From Octopus sinensis (Eukaryota): a DNA stretch of 64,000 nucleotides. Numbering within the stretch: the first letter of the stretch is position 1; each line of letters begins with the position of its first letter. Both the position numbers and the translations under genes were made by a program. This document shows positions 20,897 to 58,008 of the stretch, piece by piece. The stretch is from positions 30,256,001 through 30,320,000 of the forward strand of contig NC_043017.1 of assembly GCF_006345805.1 (NCBI RefSeq), given 5' to 3'. The notes under the pieces were generated by a model. The model saw nothing but the letters and a program-made list of their open reading frames with translations, searched no databases and was not told the origin of the DNA.

Positions 20897-21294
20897 TCTT
20901 TATATATAAAAGTGAAGTTGTGTGTGTGTCTCCTACGATTTAGATTCCTAACTACTCCCACATTTTGCAGTGCAGTGTAACCAAAACCGGGTATCTTATA
21001 GTCGTGATTCATATCAAGCCCTTCTGAGTATTAGCGCGCGTCTACGATGAGTTTACGATTAAAAAAAAAAGAAATTACCATAATTGTTTCCATTTTTAAT
21101 GCATTTTTTTTGCTATTATATAAGGGAAGTAACTCTCTAAAATTGTATTATTAAATCTCAGAACGTAAAAAGCTACAGTAACACCACCCTTTGTGGTTAG
21201 CCATATTGTGATGGCTATTATACTTTACATCTCTAAAAATGCTTATATAGTTATTTCCCTTACAAACCCGAGCAACGCCGGGCGATACTGCTAG
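20897..21294 (+). mobile_element. Non-autonomous Helitron, family H1
   Basis: A|TCTTTATATATAAAAGTGAAG ... CCCGAGCAACGCCGGG-CGATACTG-CTAG|T gives the canonical Helitron termini and AT target. Confidence 0.88.
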
Positions 21295-32199: not shown

Positions 32200-32251
32200 T
32201 GAGAACGTACGTTTCAAGATTAGTCAACTCGACACTCCTATCATCAGCTCA
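32200..32251 (-). ncRNA. Type I hammerhead ribozyme in a (TA)n-flanked module (32012-32639)
   Basis: Minus strand tgag-CTGATGA-t-agga...tctt-GAAAC-gtac-GTT-ctca: 4-bp stem I and palindromic stem III aacgtacgtt. Confidence 0.72.
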
Positions 32252-32465
32252 GAACTCCTTGTTTGGATTTGAAAACACTGAAAGTGGGAGCATACCCTTT
32301 CGGCTTCTTATCGCTTCTGAAGATCTGCTCGAAACTAACAGTGCCAGCAAACTCAATATGCAAGCGAAGCATTTCTGCTCTCCCCTTTCCACCAGCGTGG
32401 GTTAAAATCAGTAAACCTATGCTTTTTTCGGTAAAATCCGAGGCATTAAATAGAGAGAGATGAAT

Positions 32466-32639
32466 TATAATTTCAACAATTGAGGGTAAAATAATTAATT
32501 AATCAATTTCACCAAATATTCAGTATGCAAAGGGACCATTTAAGGCGAATTCAATTCGCCTTAAATGGTCCCTTTGCATACTGAATACTTGGTGAAATTG
32601 ATTAATTAATTAATTTTACCCTCAATTGTTGAAATTATA
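32466..32639. repeat. Near-perfect palindrome, 86/87-bp arms, 1-nt spacer
   Basis: Centre ggcgaatt-c-aattcgcc at 32552. The arms differ by one substitution and one indel. Confidence 0.95.
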
Positions 32640-33159
32640 TATATATATATATGATGGACATTCCGGTGAAGACGACGTATGAGTATTGTTCTGGCTTGCC
32701 GTACAAATGACCTGTACAAATGATTTATTTATAGCGTTCAAATCGCCAATCAAAGTGAGGTGAAGTGTTTTGCTTAAGAACAAAATTCACCATCCGGTCT
32801 AAAAACTGAAAATATGATATTGCGATAGTGAGTGCAGCACCCTAACCACTCGGCCATACACCATCCTAAATGTGCTTGCATATGTTTGTGTGTATGTATT
32901 ACATAAAGCAAGCTATCCACTGGTTAGCTTCACTTCTGACTGTTTTATATAGGACGTAAATATTGTGTTATAGTTTCGAGGAGAGAATCGCATACGCTTC
33001 CATTTAAGATGCACAATAAACTGGGAAACTGCCAGTCAGAAGCTTCCTTCATCTTTTATCCGCAAATAGAAAAGATCCAAGGAAAGTATATAGTCTTCTT
33101 TTCCTCTATATACAGGTATATATACGGCTATGTATATCTAGAGATGTTTATAAATGTTA

Positions 33160-47261: not shown

Positions 47262-48235
47262 AGTTTTAGCTCTAAAGTTGTGACCATGCTGGGGCACCGC
47301 CCATGTAATCGCCTTTTAATTTGCCAATTCTTTGTGATTGTCTATTGGTGAAGAGGAGAGTTCGATCTTGCCGCCCTCTTTTGTGTTTCCTTCCTTGATA
47401 TTGGTTCATCTGGGATCTTGGATAGCAAGAGGACAAGTTGTTTCATGAAACCAACTACCCACTGTGTGGAGATCCCTCAGAATATTTTTGTAAAGCGTTA
47501 AATAACTGTGGGCCCTTAAATCCAAGGTTATTGCAGTACACCTTAAACGGGACAGCTGCGACTATTTGAACAGTGACCTCCATTCAGGGGTCTGGTATAA
47601 CTCTCAATTCCAATGTTTGGTGCTAAACCTTCCAGTATCTTCCACATATATCACTGCACACCTCTCCCCTCTTCGCTCATTTCGCTTTTACAGCTTGGTT
47701 TCTGTCTTTTAAGAAGTCATGTAACCACTATCCGATTTTCCCAGCTATGCCGGGTCTCCGTAGTTTGTTACATATAATCCTATGATCAATCTTATTAATT
47801 ATATCCACATTTAAGATATTCATTAATTGTTTCAACGCCCAGTCATAGTTCTGCAAAAGCTGTGAAAATCCTACTTCTTTCTGAGCGAAAGCCATGCTGG
47901 GTGTCAGGAAGCAATTCATTATCTTCAAGGAACGCAATCACTTTCCTCCTGAAGATGCGCTCCATGATTTTGCTGACATGGGAAGTTCCAGAGAGACGTC
48001 TATAATTTTTAGCCTCTACTCTACTACCTCCTCCCTTATGGATAGGGCATATTATGCGTTCCTTTAACATATTGGGAATTCTTCCAGTTATGAAGAAGCT
48101 CTGGCAGAGAATCTGAAGTGGTCTTGCTAGAGCCCTTTTCCATTCCTTTAGGAGGGTTGCTGGAAAACGTGTCAGGGCCTAAATTTGAGCTCATTTCACA
48201 AATCGTTGATAACATATCAGTTTCCCCTATTTTGA
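47262..48235 (-). mobile_element. CR1-group LINE remnant with internal deletion (RT N-terminal part, C-terminus and 3' end)
   Basis: ORF 47843-48070 reads [29 protein letters not shown]...QHGFR, followed by KIDHRIICNKL...GIAGK. The C-terminal WKILEGLAPNIGIESY and the tail ggcggtgccccagcatggtcac resemble 26670-27100. Confidence 0.88.
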
Positions 48236-48239
48236 TGAT

Positions 48240-48364
<125 letters not shown>

Positions 48365-48423
48365 ATGCGTGTGTGTGTCTGTGAGTATGTTTATATATAT
48401 ATATATATATATATACACAAATA

Positions 48424-48589
48424 TACGGTGAGATTCTTTCAGTTTCCGTCTACCAAATCCACTCACAAGGCTTTGGTCAGCCCGAGGATATAGTAGAAGA
48501 CACTTGCACAAGTTACCATGCAGTGGGACTAAACGCGGAACCAATGTGGTTGGGAAGCTAGTTTCATATTGCACAGCTACTCCTGCGCC
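48424..48589 (-). mobile_element. SINE family A, 5' half
   Basis: Head homology. Confidence 0.85.
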
Positions 48590-50364
48590 TTATATATAAT
48601 ATCTTTTATTCGAAAGGAGCAGATTATAAACTGTCTTTATCACTTTTGTGAGAATAAATGCTAAATGGAAGATGCATCGTTAGAAATAACTTTTAACGTA
48701 GGTATTTGTCTTAATTCTACTAACACTGAATGAGATTACATCTGAACGCAAATACACAAAATCTTATTATTCATTTATGTTATATAGGTATATTAATATT
48801 TTGTACCGCTCATAAAAGTACATCGTACAGTTGTTCTGATTCACCCAAAAATCTAGATTATAAGTAAATAAAATTTGAATAATTGATGTTTTTGTTCAGT
48901 GCTTTTATGCATTTATTTATAGCTAAACAAGATTCCCATGGAATTTGCGCAAATAAGGAGAACGCCATGAAGGAAACAAATATTAAAACAATGAAAGAAA
49001 GGAATATGGAAGTAAAAAAAGAAAAGAATTTTACATGAATAAGATATTAAAACAAATTGAAATTGCATTTGAATGTATTGGAAATATTTACAAAATGTTA
49101 GATTACATCAACTGAATGTTTCTAGGATTATTAAAAACAAAACACGAATACAATAGAAATTAATTTCCTTGAAAAAAAAAATTTTGGCTACGATAATGCA
49201 GCTAAAACATAAATAACTTTGTCACATTGAAAAAATAAATTTCAGATAAAATGAAGGAGATAAAATTTGTTAATTTCAATTTCATCAATTCTCTGGAAGG
49301 TCAAACTCGTACATTCGTATAGTGTTTCAAATACGGTGTTAACTTTTCTATCGTAGCAACTAAAGGATTTAAGCTGTACTGAATGTTCGATACTGAATAA
49401 GGTAAATGATGTCGATCTATTACTAAATTTATACGTTCATGGATTCATTATTCTAGTTTTCATTAAAAAAATAATTTTGGTAGAACTATAATAAAAACAA
49501 TAGTCAGTCTATGGTCATTCGATATTTTATGAAAGCGTCTGATGTCTCAGTCCAACCATACTTTACATTGAACAGCTGGTTACCTTTCTATTGTTTGTTA
49601 TAGTAGAATGTTGCTACAGTAGAAATCATTTCTACTATACCAACAAGGCCACGAAAGTTTGGGAGATGAACCTAGTCAATAAAATCGATGTCAATACTTA
49701 TTACATGGAACCCAGATGAATGAAATGTAATGTAGGCATTGGGGGAGATCAAAACTTGAATGAAAGGTAAAATCGGTCTTGGCAGGGCATAGACATCATA
49801 AAGAAAATTCGAAGAATTACATCTAATTATTTTTTCCAGTGTGTTAACATTTCTGCTCTCCCTCTCTTTCTTTCTCTCTCTATCTCCCCCTTAAAAAAAA
49901 CAAAAAAAAAAAACAAACATACAAATATTGCGATCTAATGCAAAGCTAACGGTAAAAGAAATAAGAGAATGATCGGATATATCTGTACAAGCATCGCGTT
50001 CTTGACTCGGTAGAAAGATTTCCTGATGTCGAATGCAATCACATTCCTCTCACAAAATTCCCTCAAGCCATCTAGCGGGTGACAGGAGAGAGAAGGGCAG
50101 ATATATATAGAGAGAAATGAGAAACCATGTAGTGCAGATCAGTTAAAAGAGAGATTTAAGTTGATGTAAGACGACATTATTAATACCTACGCCCGTTGGC
50201 CAACAAGTACTAAAGTGAGCGTAATATTAGAGTGGTTGCACAGACTGGTATTCTTAGGAATCAGAAAGGCTAACGTATAAATCTCTGAATACTGGAGAAA
50301 CTGTAGAAATTTTATTAGTGTAAAGGTTAGATCTGATATCAGTGAATGTAGTTAATGGAAGAGA

Positions 50365-50784
50365 GGCATCATAACCAGTTGCTAGGTATGTTGCTACCCA
50401 ATCACATGCCCCTGGGTTCAACCCCACTGTGTGGTGCCTTGGAATAGTATCTTCAAGTATACACTCGGTCTGAGAAGACTTCTGAGTGGAATTTACTAAA
50501 CGGAAACTGAAAGAATTCCGTCGTATATTTGTATGTGTGTGTGTATTTGAATACATAGATATACACATACACACACAAACATATATATACAAATGCATAA
50601 ATGTATGTATATATATTTCGTTTTTTGATTTGGTTTACATGATTCTCTATATGAGTTCGTGTGACTATTGAAAAGGTTGCAAGACGCAAAAAAAATTTTA
50701 GAAAATAAAAATAAGAAATAAGTGGAAATTTTACCGGTGAGTGTGTTAAATAATAAGGCGCTCTCCCCAGACACAACAAAATAT

Positions 50785-50818
<34 letters not shown>

Positions 50819-51130
50819 CAGTATATATATATATATATATAACAGAATATATATATATATATACATAGATATGACTGTGTGTGCGTGTGAGTATGTATAT
50901 ATATATATATGTATATACCCATGTGTGTGCGTAGCATGTGCTCCCAACCCAACCCCACGCGTCTTTACAACCGCTGTTGGTTTACTTAGGTCCTCATAAC
51001 CTAGTGGTTCGACAAAATAACCGAAAAAATAAGTGCCACGTTCGAGTTAAAAAAAAAACACAATCATTACAAGCTGGAGCTGCATCATGGCCGCAGTGTA
51101 ATGACTGAAAGAAGTAAAAAGGGAAAAGAT
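50365..51130 (+). mobile_element. Old SINE A split at its microsatellite slot (50365-50525 plus 50930-51130)
   Basis: Diverged head and tail separated by ~400 bp of (TA)n and an unrelated insert. Confidence 0.65.
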
Positions 51131-51909
51131 AAACGACAATGCTAATTGAGGAACTAAAGTTTGCTATATCAGTTCACTTCTGTTCCTTTTCCTAACATTA
51201 ACATATGTGGACTAATCAACAATCACAAATTATCTAATCTAACTGTCCTACTTTTAATTACGATTATATCAGTTTATTACTGTCTCATTTTCTTTGGAGA
51301 AATCCCACACGTACTTACAATAGCCATTTTCAATAAATTGTTTTATGATGATGTTACATTCCTCTTTTCATCTTAAAACTCGTTATTTCTGCTAAACTCC
51401 CAGGGCATTATTTTTTCTTCTATTCAACTGTGACTCATTTAATAATATTTTTCTGCCAGATTTCTATATTCACTCACCTAAAGGAGTTAATCTTTCATCT
51501 ACTTTGGCACACTCTCGATATTTTTATGATCATTATCAGTACTATTAATACCGTTATTGTTGTTAATACTAATATTGTTATTTGAGTAGTCTCATTTGTA
51601 TTGCGTGTTTTCGATGCGTTAAGTGTTTTCTTTTCTCTATTTTATTGAAAGTACTCTGCGACTTATGTGTGCAGTGCCAATAATTATTTAGTTACGCTTG
51701 TTGGTACAAAACTTAGAATTTCCATACACATGATTAGAGCCTTGAAATAACCCACACATAACCCCGATAGTCCAAAAGTGTGTGAAGTTACACGACCAAG
51801 AGGAACTGAGAGGAACGGGAAATCATCGCTTTAAAATCTTATTCGATCTAACTTGTACTTAACATTCACTTCTCTTTCAAACAATACATGCATACATACA
51901 TACATACAT

Positions 51910-52638
51910 GGTGGTTGCCCCCTCGTTATCGAGTATGGCCATTGCACGAAGCTTAACTGTTACTGGTGCTGTGATCAAATGTGACTTTTTAGCCCAGCTA
52001 AAGATCTACAATGTCTTGTACAAAATTAGCAACTAAAACCTTTACCGGTAATAATCGGCTGTAGTTGTAACTGGGCTTCATGTACCTTTGCATGTCGTTT
52101 AAGTCCTCCTACCGAATTACACACTTCCACATGCCCGACACATGATTAGTATGGTGGCCAGGTTGGCACTCATCTGTCTCGTTTCATGACTACGAAGATG
52201 ACTCTTGAGTTCAGCTTTACTGAGGCAGGGTCTTGCATAGACATTGTATGTCAGCATCAAAGGAAGACCCTTCCCTTCTGGAAGTGTAACAGCGATGCCC
52301 TTCCTGACATCCCTCCTTACTTTCTCATGTGCAACTCGAGATTTCTCAAAAGTGGCTGTCCCCTCATGCACAATCCTTCTCCACCTGCTACGATCAATAG
52401 CTATGCCTTCCCATGTGTCAGCAAGTCCTTATACACATATCGATACCACCTTAAACAACGGATCTATGGCTTTAAGTGGAAGGACCGCATCAGTGATCTT
52501 GAAATACTGGAAGACTCTCGGTGTGAAAGTATAGAAGCTCTTGTGTTAAAGCAAAAGCTCAGATGGAGTGGTCATCTGGTCAGAATGAAGGATTTAAGGA
52601 TGCCAAAACAACTCTTTTACGGAGAGTTAGCTAAAGGA
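51910..52638 (-). mobile_element. RTE-BovB-type LINE 3' fragment with 5' inversion
   Basis: Minus 51910-52445 reads DTWEGIAIDRSRWRRIV...CLSKAELKSHLRSH plus 3' tail. Plus 52447-52638 reads RIYGFKWKDRISDLEIL...LRWSGHLVRMKDLRMPKQLFYGEL. Flanked by catacatacatacatg repeats. Confidence 0.88.
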
Positions 52639-52843
52639 GCATACATACATACATGCGTATATGTATGTGTTTGTGTCTATGTACGTGAAGGTATGCATAT
52701 ATGGTAATACGTGTGGATTGATGCGTGTCTTTTGTAAGTGTGTTTGCGTATGTCTGTGCATTCACTAATGCGTGAATATGTAGCTATACATCGATGAGTC
52801 GATTTTATATGCACATAATTTCGTGACATTTAGACAACTATTA

Positions 52844-53223
52844 CATATTTATATGGCAAACAGACGTCACGATGTGTTGTAGCTACTGTTTATAACTCGC
52901 TCTGAGATTTATTATTGTTTGTTTACACCTTTTCGATATCAGTGTCTATCGATACTGGAAAAAGGTTTAAGTATTTGTGAAGGGAACCAGCTTCTCATCA
53001 ACAACTGTGATTGTCACACGCCGATGACGGGTCAATACCCAGAAACTCGAGTCCGTGTGTATCATAAGTTTGAGACGGGAAGGATGGCTTCCTTTTGCAA
53101 ATACTGATAGGGCACAGAAAGTGTGTCTATAGCCAGCTGGAGGAGGTGTCCTCCTGGGGCTGCAAACTACAGTAGCATCCACCTTTAGGGGTTAGCCATA
53201 TTTATATGGCAAACAGACGTCAC
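52844..53223 (+). mobile_element. Retrozyme-like 353-nt structured unit with 27-bp terminal redundancy
   Basis: catatttatatggcaaacagacgtcac occurs at 52844-52870 and 53197-53223, enclosing multiple long stems and a central HHR. Confidence 0.7.
53015..53059 (+). ncRNA. Type I hammerhead ribozyme (U4C variant in this copy)
   Basis: Stem I cacacg/cgtgtg, extended by tgtgat/atcata and aact/agtt. Core CCGATGA, stem II gggt(caat)accc, then GAAAC-tcga-GTC with predicted cleavage after 53053. Confidence 0.8.
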
Positions 53224-53634
53224 TATATAATTTTTGTTTTGCTTTAAAACCTCACACTTAATTTACATTTATAAAAACTCTCACCCTATTATTTGTACCA
53301 ATTCCTTCCGACATCTATTACTCCATTATTCTAGCCGTATTTGTCATAAACTTGCCTTTCCTTTATACCCATCACTGTTCACTCAGTTACAGTTTTATAT
53401 TCCTTTAAGATAAGCACATTCCTTTCCTTTCCAATGACCCTATTCTTTGTACATGTTTCTTTCTAACATTCCAGGTAGCACTGGAATAATTATGTAATCA
53501 GTAAACATCTATTATTCCGTTATTCTGATTCACTCTGCCATAACGTCGCCTTTCCTGCATAACCGTCACTATTGTTAACTCTGTTAAAGTTCTATATTCC
53601 TTTATGTTGAGCTCAATCGTTTCCTTTCCAATCA

Positions 53635-54329
53635 CTTGTCCGAGATAAACTTTACAGGTAAGGAAGTGCGGTCAGCCGGACCTGCCCGAGGAACGTCCAG
53701 GACGATGAAACCGTTTCGAACCGCTCTAGTGGCAGAGTAATGCTGACATGTGGGTGTATGTCGAACACCTGCTGTCGTGTGTATGAGAGACCTGCCCACT
53801 AGCTGAATCCATTGTGAAGATTGCCCCGTCGCCCTCTTTTGGCCGGGTGGGGCAAGCAATTATTATTCTTCTAGAGGCCGTAGCGAAAGAGGTAGTATGG
53901 CGGACCCCTTTTGAAAGGGGTTAAAGACAGACACTTTCCTATTAGACCTAGCCCTCGTCATCTCTGAAATTTCACTTAAAAATGAAGTTGAGGATGGAGA
54001 GAGAACTGTTGCCTTCAAGCAACTTTGTTGAAAAGTGGGTGAATGTAAGGAAGAATGGCCAGTGTGAAAGGACCAATTCTGGGAATGCACATGTGAAAAA
54101 TAAAAGAAGGGCTCTTGTCATGTTGATCAGGCACCCGTGGATTTTGTGGGGTTCCCCACGAGGACCTTAAAGTGCCCCTCCTATTGAGAGGTTTACTTTG
54201 ATTAATTTGTTATTGTTACGGTTTGTTTACTTTCGGAAATCTCATTGTATCGTCCCGCTTTTGTCTTTTATGTTGTTGCATGTGCTTTAAGGTTATTGAA
54301 TGTCAGACCTTGTGGCTAATAAAAGAATA
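53635..54329 (+). mobile_element. 3' end of Tx1/L1-clade LINE (zf-RVT region plus 3' UTR)
   Basis: VRDKLYR*GSAVSRTCPR...DETV, then WVYVEHLL...AVAKEVVW, then RMERELL.SSNFVEKW. It ends ccttgtggctaataaaagaata before a (TTC)n-like flank. Confidence 0.75.
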
Positions 54330-54433
54330 TTTCTTCTTCTGCTTCTTTTTCTTATCATCATCAACATCATTATTATTATTATTACTATTATTATTATTAT
54401 TGTTGTTATTATTGTTGTTGTTTTTATCAGTAA

Positions 54434-54840
54434 TGCGGTGAGCTGGCAGAACCGTTAGCACGCCGGCCGAAATGCTTAGCGGTATTTCGTCTGCCGCTGC
54501 GTTCTGAGTTCAAATTCTGCCGAGGTCCACTTTGCCTTTCATCCTTTCGGGGTCGATTCAATTAAGTACCAGTTACGCACTAGGGTCGATGTAAGCGACT
54601 TAATCCGTTTGTCTGACCTTGTTTGTCCTCTCTGTGTTTAGCCCCTTGGGGGTAGAAAAAGAAATAGGTATTTCGGCTGCCGTTATGTTCTGAGCTCAAA
54701 TACTACCGAGGTCGACTTTGCCTTTCTTCCTTCAGGGTCGATTAAATAAGTTTCAGGTACGCACTGAAGTCGATTTAATTGACTTAATTCCTTCTCCACA
54801 GGCTGTCCACGTGCCAAAGATTTGAAATCATTATTATTAT
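54434..54840 (+). mobile_element. SINE family B head-to-tail dimer
   Basis: Same aaata|ggtatttcg junction as 44642-45200; ends in the older tail plus (att)n. Confidence 0.85.
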
Positions 54841-55030
54841 TGTCATTATCCTTATTATTAGTAGCAGTGTTAGTATTAGTAGAAGCATCAGCCTTAGTAT
54901 TGCCGGAAGTAATAATAGTGGTGATGGTGCTTGTGGAGACGTGGTGATAGTAGTAGTAGTAGTAACAATAGCAGTATGTTCTTGCTGGGTGTAGTGGTAG
55001 CGGAGTTAACGCCTTGGATGCTAGTAGTGA

Positions 55031-55061
<31 letters not shown>

Positions 55062-55519
55062 TATTGTAGAACGGATATCCTCTCAACGTAAGTGCCGCAG
55101 CCCCACCATTTTATAGATTTATATCCCACTTAGAACCGATTTTAATTTTATTGCTAATCCTGCTCTACGTCAAAATTTAAGTACTTTGCCATAGAAATCT
55201 GTCGTATTGCTATCATGCAACCAATTGTTAATATCATATCTTTCATATCAATAGTCGTCGGCATCGACAATTTCGTCATCACCGTCGTCGTCATCAGCAC
55301 CACCACCATCATCAACGTCGTCATTATCATCGCCACTATCATTCTCAGCGGTCGTTATCATTATGCCAAGCTGTCATCGAGGCATCATCAGCATGACAAT
55401 GCATCAATATTAACGTATTTTCTTCACGTATCGATAAGAAAGTTCTAAGCCTATAGTTTGTATGTTTGATTTAGCTACCATCATTTCGACACTTCGGTAA
55501 GCAAGTTACACACACACAC

Positions 55520-55564
<45 letters not shown>

Positions 55565-55635
55565 ATTAGGGAGTAAATCCAAACTTACAGAGAAAAATTA
55601 GATTTAGGATTAAATCTAATTTAATAGTATAAATA

Positions 55636-55825
55636 TATATATTAAATTAGAAATAGAACCACTATTAGGCAACTCAAACAGTGAAAATCATAAACCAATA
55701 CATAGAAAAAAATTAAATAATAAAAAATATAAAATTCAAAATATAAATTATTTAAATTTAAAGTTAAAATAAAAAAAATTAAGTTTCAGTTGCCTAATAG
55801 TGGTTTTATCTCTAATTTTATATAT
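55636..55825. repeat. Inverted repeat (~43-bp arms) in a (TA)n-flanked AT-rich module
   Basis: aaattagaaatagaaccactattaggcaactcaaac versus gtttcagttgcctaatagtggttttatctctaatttt. Confidence 0.8.
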
Positions 55826-56085
55826 ATATATATATACATACATATATATACATATATACATATATACATACATATATACATACATACATATATACATACA
55901 TATATACATACATACATATATACATATATATACATATATATACATATATAATATACATATATATACATATATATATACATATATATATATCATGTATATA
56001 TACTATATATATACATATATATACATGTATATATACATATATATTACATATATATATACATATATATACATATATATACATATAT

Positions 56086-56124
<39 letters not shown>

Positions 56125-56213
56125 GGTGAAAAGAAACAGTAGTTGATAAATATGGAAATAAAAGTCAAGGTAGAAATTGCTAAAATATGTTTATAAAAAA
56201 AAAAAAAACATTT

Positions 56214-56249
56214 CAGTACCGGTTTCAGTCATTGAGACTTTTTCAACTG
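56214..56249 (-). ncRNA. Minimal hammerhead ribozyme with compensatory U3-A8 core
   Basis: cag-TTGAAAA-agtc(tcaat)gact-GAAAC-cg-GTA-ctg. Confidence 0.65.
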
Positions 56250-56783
56250 TAAGTATGGAAATCAATTCAATTTTGTAAAAGTTAAAAGAAAAGTTTTTAA
56301 AAAGAATATTTGCATAGTATTCAAATACAAGTGGCATCTTCCTTGTTTCTGCCTGTCTCTGTCTCTCTTATTTAAGAGGTCATTGTGTATTCTTGGCAGG
56401 GAAAAAGAAGGAATAGGAGGGGGAAGAGGAGAATGCGGGAGTGGCATGATAGTAGTAGGATGTTAAATGGTCAAGTGACATAAAAAGTATTTCGTTATGG
56501 ATTATTGCAGGAATTGGAACCGGTTTTTAAAAAATGTGTTTCTGGAATGAGATGAGATGAACGGTAGATATTGCTTGGAGTCCATGGGATTATGGTATAT
56601 ATCTGCTTCTGTTTCGTTGTTGGATTTGTTAATGAGGATGTCGAGGAATTGAAGTTGTCGATGGCTATAATCCATCGTGAATTGAATGTTTATGTCAAGT
56701 CTGGCTATATCTGCTTTAAATTCTTCAAATTCTTTAAGTCTCTCTATCCTTTCATGCAAAAGAATGAGACAGTAATCCAGATA

Positions 56784-57431
56784 GGCGCAGGAGTGGCTGT
56801 GTGGTAAGTAGCATGCAAGGCGGCGAGCTGGCAGAAACGTTAGCACGCCAGGCGAAATGCTTAGCGGTATTTCGCTTGTCGTTACGCTGTGAGTTCAAAT
56901 TCCGCCAAGGTTGACTTTGCCTTTCATCCTTTCGGGGTCGATAAATTAAGTACCAGTTACGCACTGGGGTCGATGTAATCGACTTAATACCTATGTATGT
57001 CCTTGTTTGTCCCCTCTATGTTTAGCCCCTTGTGGGTAATAAAGAAATAGGTAAGTAGCTTGCTAATCAAACACATGGTTCCGGGTTCAGTCCCACTGCG
57101 TGGCATCTTGGGCAAATGTCTTCTGCTATAACCTCGGGCCAACCAATGCCTTGTGAGTGGATTTGGTAGACGGAAACTGAAAGAAGCCTGTCGTATATAT
57201 GCATATATATATGTTTGTGTATGTGTTTGTGTGTCTGTGTGTGTCCCCCTAGCATTGCTTGACAATCGATGCTGCTGTGCTTACGTCCCCGTAACTTAGC
57301 GGTTCGGCAAAAGCGACCGATAGATTAAGTACTGGGCTTACAAAGAATAAGTCCTAGGAGTCGATTTGATCGACTAAAGGCGGTGCTCCAGCATGGCCGC
57401 AGTCAAATTACTGAAACAAGTAAAAGAGTAA
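56784..57431 (+). mobile_element. SINE family A inserted in the PLE RT and carrying a nested SINE B
   Basis: The head at 56784-56816 resumes at 57050. Confidence 0.92.
56817..57049 (+). mobile_element. SINE family B nested in the SINE A head
   Basis: 14-bp TSD ggtaagtagc(a/t)tgc at 56803-56816 and 57050-57063. Confidence 0.93.
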
Positions 57432-57846
57432 ATACCTCTTCCAGTTATTTTCTATGTAGAGGGAGAATGGGTTGCCGTATTTTTCTAGTACCTTTTGATA
57501 AAGACTGATTTCAAAATATCCCATGACTCGGTTACAATACGAGTGGGCCATTCTCGTACCCATCGCATCGCCCGAATTTTGTCGATAAATATTATCCTTG
57601 TATATAATATATTAAACTACATACATACTCTCTCACACACACACAAAAACAAATGAGGGAAGGGAACGGAATGGAATTCACTACAACACTTATCAAAACG
57701 ATCGTTTCGACCTGATTTGCATCCGTCCCTGGCAGGCGGGATGCTATAAAACGTGTTGCATTGAAACCTCCGGTGTAGATATACCTCCTACGTTGCATTC
57801 CGAAAGATGCATCAGCCAATATATATATATGTATATATATATATAT

Positions 57847-58008
57847 AGGCGCAGGAGTGGCTGTGTGGTAAGTAGCTTGCTTACCAACCACATGGTTCCG
57901 GGTTCAGTCCCACTGCGTGGCACCTTGGGCGAGTGTCTTCTACTATAGCCTGGGGCTGACCAAAGCCTTGTGAGTGGATTTGGTAGACGGAAACTGAAAG
58001 AAGCCCGT

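Follow-up and report, generated by a model that had tools for sequence, protein, structure and literature searches.

A 353-nt hammerhead retrozyme family of Octopus sinensis, probably copied by a Penelope-type reverse transcriptase-endonuclease from circular RNA

The window analyzed here is a stretch of 64,000 nucleotides from Octopus sinensis (assembly GCF_006345805.1, contig NC_043017.1, positions 30,256,001 to 30,320,000, forward strand). It contains an insert of about 380 bp that corresponds to 1.08 turns of a 353-nt unit with a type I hammerhead. In the following list, coordinates are those of the window; "phase" denotes the position in the unit, with phase 1 at 52871 and the cut site after phase 183.

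52844-53226, plus strand: retrozyme insertion of 1.08 units, a single arm from site A, assigned to subfamily S4 (4.2% from the S4 majority, 10-15% from the other four subfamilies)
52812-52827, no strand assigned: tentative decayed target site duplication (TSD) and stub, seen by eye; a 10-mer matches 53224-53233 at 8/10, and after it 6 nt match the site A end in inverted orientation
52844-52870, plus strand: 5' redundant 27-mer, putative start of a second pass, 5'-truncated inside a GCCATA-TTTA-TATGGC hairpin; the two passes are identical, and 0/166 arms at other loci are as close
52882-52889, plus strand: 5' arm of the closing stem, pairing with 53169-53176 in the fold
52911-52928 (mostly 52914-52920), plus strand: 3' end site B, second putative reverse-transcription start, used by 102/258 arms and read through in the window copy
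52927-52966, plus strand: side hairpin in the minimum free energy (MFE) fold
52970-53105, plus strand: long rod tipped by the hammerhead, its pairs showing compensatory changes between subfamilies
52970-52986 / 53089-53105, plus strand: rod pairing in the MFE fold
53003-53017, plus strand: equivalent of the site that a 1.87-kb zinc-knuckle element targets in other copies, empty here
53015-53059, plus strand: type I hammerhead motif with U4C core, C·A at the base of stem II and palindromic stem III, predicted cut after 53053
53169-53176, plus strand: 3' arm of the closing stem, pairing with 52882-52889
53197-53223, plus strand: 3' copy of the 27-mer, probably the first bases copied, judging from the family ends
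53220-53226, plus strand: 3' end site A, after ACGTCAC, putative reverse-transcription start used in the window copy and by 126/258 arms

A preliminary description of this DNA had reported a 27-bp direct repeat bracketing a 353-nt period, with a type I hammerhead at 53015-53059. Both were found exactly where described. The repeat (52844-52870 / 53197-53223) is exact over 27 bp and matches at 29/30 positions on extension. In the hammerhead, stem I pairs 53015-53020 with 53054-53059, the core CCGATGA occupies 53021-53027, stem II is GGG/CCC with the mismatch C53028·A53041 at its base, and GAAA follows at 53042-53045; stem III is palindromic (ACTCGAGT), and the GUC triplet lies at 53051-53053. 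A motif scan of the 64-kb window gave four matches, among which only the retrozyme match has a 6-bp stem I. Rfam did not report a hammerhead in the region 48000-58000 at E<=1, and the ribozyme call therefore rests on the motif and on its conservation: core and stems persist through five subfamilies and in an older family, with only core position 7 free (U, C, G or A). In alignment A1, one off-target row (L202) was disregarded.

For the unit, the predicted folding energy is -124.1 kcal/mol (z -5.7, 0/100 shuffles as low), and its MFE fold contains the rod, the side hairpins and the closing stem that had been proposed. Folding of the circularized monomer, suggested earlier as a check, gave a z of -5.5 against 25 shuffles; circular folds as a whole ranged from -4.6 to -8.9. 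The predicted active hammerhead fold lies 5-6 kcal/mol above the local MFE. Covariation in the stems had been named as a decisive point. When the structure was taken from one subfamily alone and then compared across subfamilies, 7-8 pairs were changed on both sides, against a null mean of about 1.5 (1.4-1.6) and 0-2 in slid controls. Together with the kept core, these changes show that selection acts on the RNA fold and on the ribozyme.

The 27-mer had been regarded as part of the element and not as a host TSD. This was borne out, as it is repeated in other copies at unrelated loci, and real TSDs in the family measure 11-13 bp; such a TSD has no clear counterpart at the window copy. Because rare variants are common to both passes and none of the arms elsewhere matches as well, the 27-mer is, by sequence comparison, the start of a second pass. 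Copying for slightly more than one round, as originally proposed, agrees with the existence of longer-than-one-turn copies and multimers in the family. If the insert were instead a SINE-like or satellite repeat with a hammerhead motif arisen by chance, the 27-mer would be a plain target duplication; the silence of Rfam could be cited for this. The recurrence of the 27-mer at unrelated loci and the TSD lengths refute this reading, core and stems are conserved with covariation, and we give it virtually no credence.

Several other features of the window are recorded here in their own right. A 55-nt stub of a retrozyme 3' end (21170-21223, plus strand, phases 294-348) is 82% identical to the unit, and a diverged direct repeat with a period of 194-197 nt lies directly right of the insertion (53283-53640). 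About 200 bp to its left, 52117-52640 holds a decayed LINE fragment that we take to be RTE-like by motif, with no Pfam hit. A different hammerhead repeat family, with a CUGAUGA core and a palindromic ACGUACGU helix III region, is seen on the minus strand at 32200-32640.

The claim that the insert belongs to a multi-copy, non-coding hammerhead retrozyme family was supported genome-wide. A search of the 2.72-Gb genome with the unit returned 3,216 first-look candidates, of which 40 were scored. An exact 29-mer from the 3' part had at least 1,867 matches and a subfamily-specific 29-mer at least 706, with 0 for reversed-pattern controls; such exact-pattern counts are lower bounds. Matches are dispersed across all large contigs, and the scattered family, the window copy included, counts at least a thousand members. 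The unit is 352-353 nt long and repeats head to tail without seams, the longest arms spanning 6.8 and 7.1 units. With a longest stop-to-stop frame of 74 aa on either strand, it appears non-coding and, as judged on reading frames, free of LTR architecture. The RT plus GIY-YIG ORF of an autonomous Penelope is absent from the unit and its multimers.

Five subfamilies (S1-S5) stand 15-55 nt apart. S1, with a CUGACGA core and a full GAGG/CCUC stem II, has a median divergence of 0.7% and is the youngest. S2 and S5 have U·U at the base of stem II, S3 and S4 have C·A there, and the U4C core is found in S4 and S5. The preliminary description had noted U4C and the C·A mismatch and suspected that the window copy was inactive. 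Both changes are present; their reading as decay of this copy did not hold, as 35/37 of the nearest copies have them and the subfamily has spread. They are, by this distribution, inherited subfamily traits. Exact ribozyme motifs number at least 998 for canonical CUGANGA and at least 177 for U4C genome-wide, again with 0 for reversed-pattern controls. U4C is known from a viroid, in which activity in vitro is reported to be considerably lower and infection still possible (PMC3088659); in the present family, a hammerhead with U4C has spread through an animal genome.

An older retrozyme family, about 80% identical, has the same build, the C·A pair, a similar end B and a CUGAGGA core (L193-L222; 531 first-look candidates). 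It was considered as the parent Penelope and rejected, being a separate retrozyme family without an RT ORF at the 30 loci viewed. One of its loci (L195:1497-2060) has, after a full unit, three tandem units of 187-189 nt that lack the whole ribozyme rod. Of the listed data sets containing the unit, none is registered as RNA. Contigs from four runs (guessed to be RNA; assembled only) showed no place with many molecule starts or ends, and their depth is unreadable as expression. In run X6, labelled as a second organism, contigs span the unit and take in its U4C ribozyme region (record 28, 53001-53160, 8 differences).

In order to characterize insertion ends, we mapped 258 arms of at least 25 nt at 159 loci. 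These came from four samples: the 30 most similar loci (biased towards long copies), 40 found by a ribozyme 31-mer (two counted under the positional sample), 62 among the leading 100 matches by position on contig C1, after removal of 8 overlapping stretches, and a further 27 loci of S1. The 3' ends fell at site A (phase 346-8) in 126 arms and at site B (phase 41-58), about 45 nt beyond A on the repeating unit, in 102; only 30 ended elsewhere. A TA run came next in 128 of the 228 arms ending at A or B. The 5' ends were scattered, copies ranging from stubs to seven seamless units, and 36/94 A/B arms in the positional sample were longer than one unit. Circularly permuted ends had been expected; the variable 5' ends agree with that expectation and the 3' ends contradict it, being confined to two fixed sites. 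Among arms reaching the ribozyme cut site, 4/159 start within about 6 nt of it (phase 180-190).

Head-to-head arrangement was frequent (34/62 loci of the positional sample), and tail-to-tail arrangement was seen at 0/159 loci. The 82 head-to-head pairs comprised 62 A+B, 1 A+A, 0 B+B and 19 with an off-site end, so that pairs with both ends on-site were A+B in 62/63 cases (p 7e-18). Of these 63 pairs, 42 lie inside TA runs and are hence unscorable for a TSD. At non-TA targets, 13/21 pairs (two of the 13 still TA-rich) were flanked by a direct repeat of 11-13 bp (mode 12), compared with 3/420 mismatched flank-pair controls at a threshold of >=10 bp. The inner junctions mostly overlap by 0-7 nt. 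In 24/62 A+B pairs each arm covers sequence missing from the other, so that the second arm of those pairs cannot have arisen by fold-back copying of the first cDNA. Two loci have unusual layouts: at L109 the same flank follows both outer ends (an inverted duplication including flank), and L164 has two adjacent head-to-head pairs with an identical junction.

These footprints resemble those of Penelope-like elements, for which 5' truncation, an inverted adjoining copy, a tail at one end and a microsatellite bias are described (PMC8557442), as are 8-10-bp TSDs and an inverted copy proposed to arise by self-priming (Arkhipova 2013, PMC3846280). For an anole Penelope in vitro, both strands are reported to be cleaved and extended, the tail being delimited by two internal RT starts (PMC11167929). 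Penelope-type mobilization of the retrozyme is thus very probable from its insertion marks.

Penelope machinery is present in the same genome. A window fragment (56502-56894) used as query gave 140,933 candidates, several loci having frames of 720-784 aa, and one locus of this abundant family scored for RVT_1 and GIY-YIG. The following intact frame was found.

L071:2774-5125, plus strand: intact 784-aa Penelope ORF with RT and GIY-YIG, by domain scores

The intact Penelope family has a U3-A8 hammerhead-like motif at its 3' end, two ends about 36 nt apart and TA-run targets, and its head-to-head loci are A+B in 3/3 cases (L073, L080, L081). Another Penelope ORF, distinct from the first, occupies L071:6382-8433. 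In the window, 56130-56894 (minus strand) is a decayed 3' end of the abundant family with an RT thumb fragment and a TA-run end, and a U3-A8 hammerhead-like motif is seen in it near 56215-56250. At L081, the CUGAUGA-core hammerhead family seen at 32200-32640 of the window forms arrays with a period of about 556 nt on both strands around a Penelope insertion. Comparison of the retrozyme unit with Penelope ends found no sequence similarity among 22 loci. The abundant family was accordingly rejected as the retrozyme's parent, and the Penelope family counts as a candidate partner rather than an identified one. By eye, a short TAT(C)AACTCG-like motif seems to be common to retrozyme and Penelope tails.

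With every insertion mark being Penelope-like, the units could also be stumps or solo pseudo-LTRs (pLTRs) of an autonomous Penelope family still to be discovered, and Xenopus retrozymes are reported to resemble pLTRs (bioRxiv 10.64898/2026.07.22.740005). We consider this improbable. The units run seamlessly head to tail for up to seven turns with no ORF, and their canonical type I ribozyme differs in build from the U3-A8 motif of the local Penelope end. In a comparison of flanks among 60 loci, the shared non-repeat sequence chosen for closer study proved to be the zinc-knuckle insert and not an RT gene.

The two arms of a pair belonged to the same subfamily in 41/42 cases. At three polymorphic sites in 25 S1 pairs (one locus supplying two), 12 minor alleles were shared and 0 discordant; shuffled pairing gave 4.1 shared and 13.4 discordant, and 0/5000 shuffles were as extreme. 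Transcripts of one source locus, rather than one molecule, could account for the shared haplotype. A test for sharing of private variants gave no excess over a nearest-other-locus control (9 in 8841 and 7 in 8130 columns, versus 26 in 43175). Multi-turn S1 arms were haplotype-uniform in 18/19 cases, and only 4/93 types of single-turn variants recurred at another locus. A further 14 variants were common to only some turns, and six of these occur in two neighboring turns of a single array; this suggests some duplication at the DNA level or an error in the assembly.

A circular RNA is the probable template, given that the ribozyme is under selection although its cut is not marked by copy ends, and that unit differences are not handed on to the turns. 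Two further arguments were examined and dropped. Stops are in excess just past one turn (S1: 0 arms at 303-353 nt and 10 at 353-403; mixed sample: 2 versus 11), but the excess falls on hairpin-rich phases where first-pass arms stop too and is no proof of a circle. Dimer circles were suggested by alternate-turn variants at L128 and L169; these arrays are indel-rich and the pattern fails across columns.

The live rival is the same Penelope insertion with an uncut linear multimer as template, copied with template jumps that restore length, the ribozyme serving another step. For the anole element PAc, uncut RNA is described as the main substrate in vitro, and ribozyme mutants as inserting normally (PMC11167929), so a linear multimer can serve as template. 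Loci of up to seven units are possible sources, and a subfamily with a U4C ribozyme spread nonetheless. On the other hand, a source array should hand down its unit differences, whereas single-turn variants rarely recur between loci and the haplotype is uniform across turns. Daughters could not exceed the template in length, and no long master array was present among the matches listed (the first 100 places of each search). Moreover, the ribozyme is conserved even though 5' ends keep away from where it cuts. We regard the linear template as unlikely, though well ahead of the pLTR explanation.

Together, the above observations are consistent with a non-coding 353-nt hammerhead family whose RNA, probably a circle, is copied by a Penelope RT-endonuclease, a reading to which we assign a probability of roughly 0.7. 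A locus with two ribozymes would be transcribed and self-cleave, the cleavage probably being aided by pairing of palindromic stems III between neighboring ribozymes, and the monomer would be ligated into a circle. A Penelope-like protein would then cut AT-rich or (TA)n DNA with one nick in each strand, some 12 bp from each other, as the footprints suggest. The nicks would prime cDNA internally, one at A and the other at B, which would explain the observed A+B pattern on the same RNA haplotype. The polymerases appear to stop variably, after a few dozen bases to seven turns, crossing the ribozyme cut site. Finally, the two cDNA ends would be joined head to head, mostly with an overlap of 0-7 nt. 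Loss or near-loss of one arm would leave a single arm, as in the window copy, which ends 27 nt past one turn. With one ribozyme, that copy could not release a circle alone and is a predicted dead end.

A more specific version has one circular RNA copied simultaneously by both halves of an RT-endonuclease dimer, primed at A and B; we hold it tentatively, at slightly less than an even chance. If correct, nicks 12 bp apart with several rolls from each would explain the tail at one end and the head-to-head layout of Penelope elements generally. The dimer version also includes a three-tier chain of parasites, in which an ORF1-only retroelement targets the retrozyme and can hitch-hike.

That retroelement was found inserted in other copies of the family.

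L078:5054-6935 (also L079 and L223-L242), minus strand at L078: zinc-knuckle (zf-CCHC) element, inserted upstream of the retrozyme hammerhead

The 1.87-kb element has a zf-CCHC frame, AATAAA and a short A-rich end, and occupies one fixed site directly 5' of hammerhead stem I, flanked by a duplication of about 15 bp that tracks the host subfamily sequence. A search gave 297 candidates, 40 of them scored. Among 20 loci viewed, the target motif was matched as a pattern at the 3' junction in 18, and a decayed ribozyme followed in the 19th. Tails differ, and independent and tandem insertions were found in S3 and in the older family. The protein matches only two Octopus proteins, in line with the cephalopod origin suggested in the preliminary description, and no autonomous partner was found in four stretches of 6-7 kb. 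The element looks like a sequence-specific ORF1-only non-LTR element, for which we take Tx1 and HAL1 as comparison names. Related elements seem to use the same site (L225, L227/L244). The family thus shows a retroelement targeting a ribozyme repeat.

The Penelope cycle behind tails and inverted copies has been described as undefined (PMC8557442), and re-entry of animal retrozymes into the genome has so far been a proposal from co-occurrence and pLTR similarity. The octopus family offers hundreds of young, short and readable insertions, a 353-nt template and, within one genome, a candidate enzyme whose ORF is intact. Its exact predictions (two starts, one per strand, a 12-bp stagger and multi-turn cDNA from a circle) fit the existing in vitro Penelope assay. 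Circles as templates for copying beyond unit length have already been proposed (PMC4209133). In the accessible literature on retrozymes, cephalopod ribozymes and Penelope, no octopus family and no retrozyme insertion ends are described, though an earlier listing is possible. There, a tail at one end is known qualitatively, and we found no counterpart to the per-insertion A+B count and the haplotype result.

By every mark that could be assessed in the genome, the family belongs to the animal non-LTR retrozymes, whose units measure 350-390 bp in mussel and 330/353 bp in axolotl (Cervera and de la Pena 2020, PMC7229834; for further marks see PMC7761336). As in the account given there, it has a non-coding unit of about 350 nt, a canonical type I hammerhead with a short palindromic helix III, strong self-pairing, multimers, a TSD longer than 4 bp and Penelope elements in the same genome. 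The U·U at the base of helix II in S2 and S5 is as in axolotl HHR_Amex2 (PMC7229834). Unlike the retrozymes of that study, octopus copies are nearly all dispersed single insertions of 0.1-7 units and not long arrays; each copy therefore keeps its footprint of two fixed 3' ends, head-to-head arms and a 12-bp TSD. Circles and cleavage were demonstrated for the former (PMC7229834), whereas the octopus family is known from genome sequence.

Li, Clavereau and Pollet (2026, bioRxiv 10.64898/2026.07.22.740005) proposed that vertebrate non-LTR retrozymes use Penelope enzymes, and the two cases share this proposal and dispersed monomers. In its available text, that proposal rests on co-occurrence and pLTR similarity, with insertion ends unanalyzed, whereas the octopus case builds on footprints, no pLTR similarity having been found among the 22 loci compared. 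Those authors call a retrozyme active when it has at least two complete tandem ribozymes. This applies to the family (25/188 arms of at least 150 nt, 21 of these S1) and not to the window copy, which has one.

With EN+ Penelope-like elements as portrayed in PMC3846280, PMC8557442 and PMC11167929, the family shares 5' truncation, partial tandems, a head-to-head inverted copy and a tail that may be present at one end. TSDs (8-10 bp in those elements), a preference for AT-rich or microsatellite targets, two RT starts inside the template and the use of both strands as primers are further points in common. It differs from them in having no RT-EN ORF and a tail of about 45 nt instead of 30-40. Compared with the self-priming proposal of Arkhipova (2013, PMC3846280), A+B in octopus was counted per insertion, at 62/63, with fold-back excluded in 24/62.
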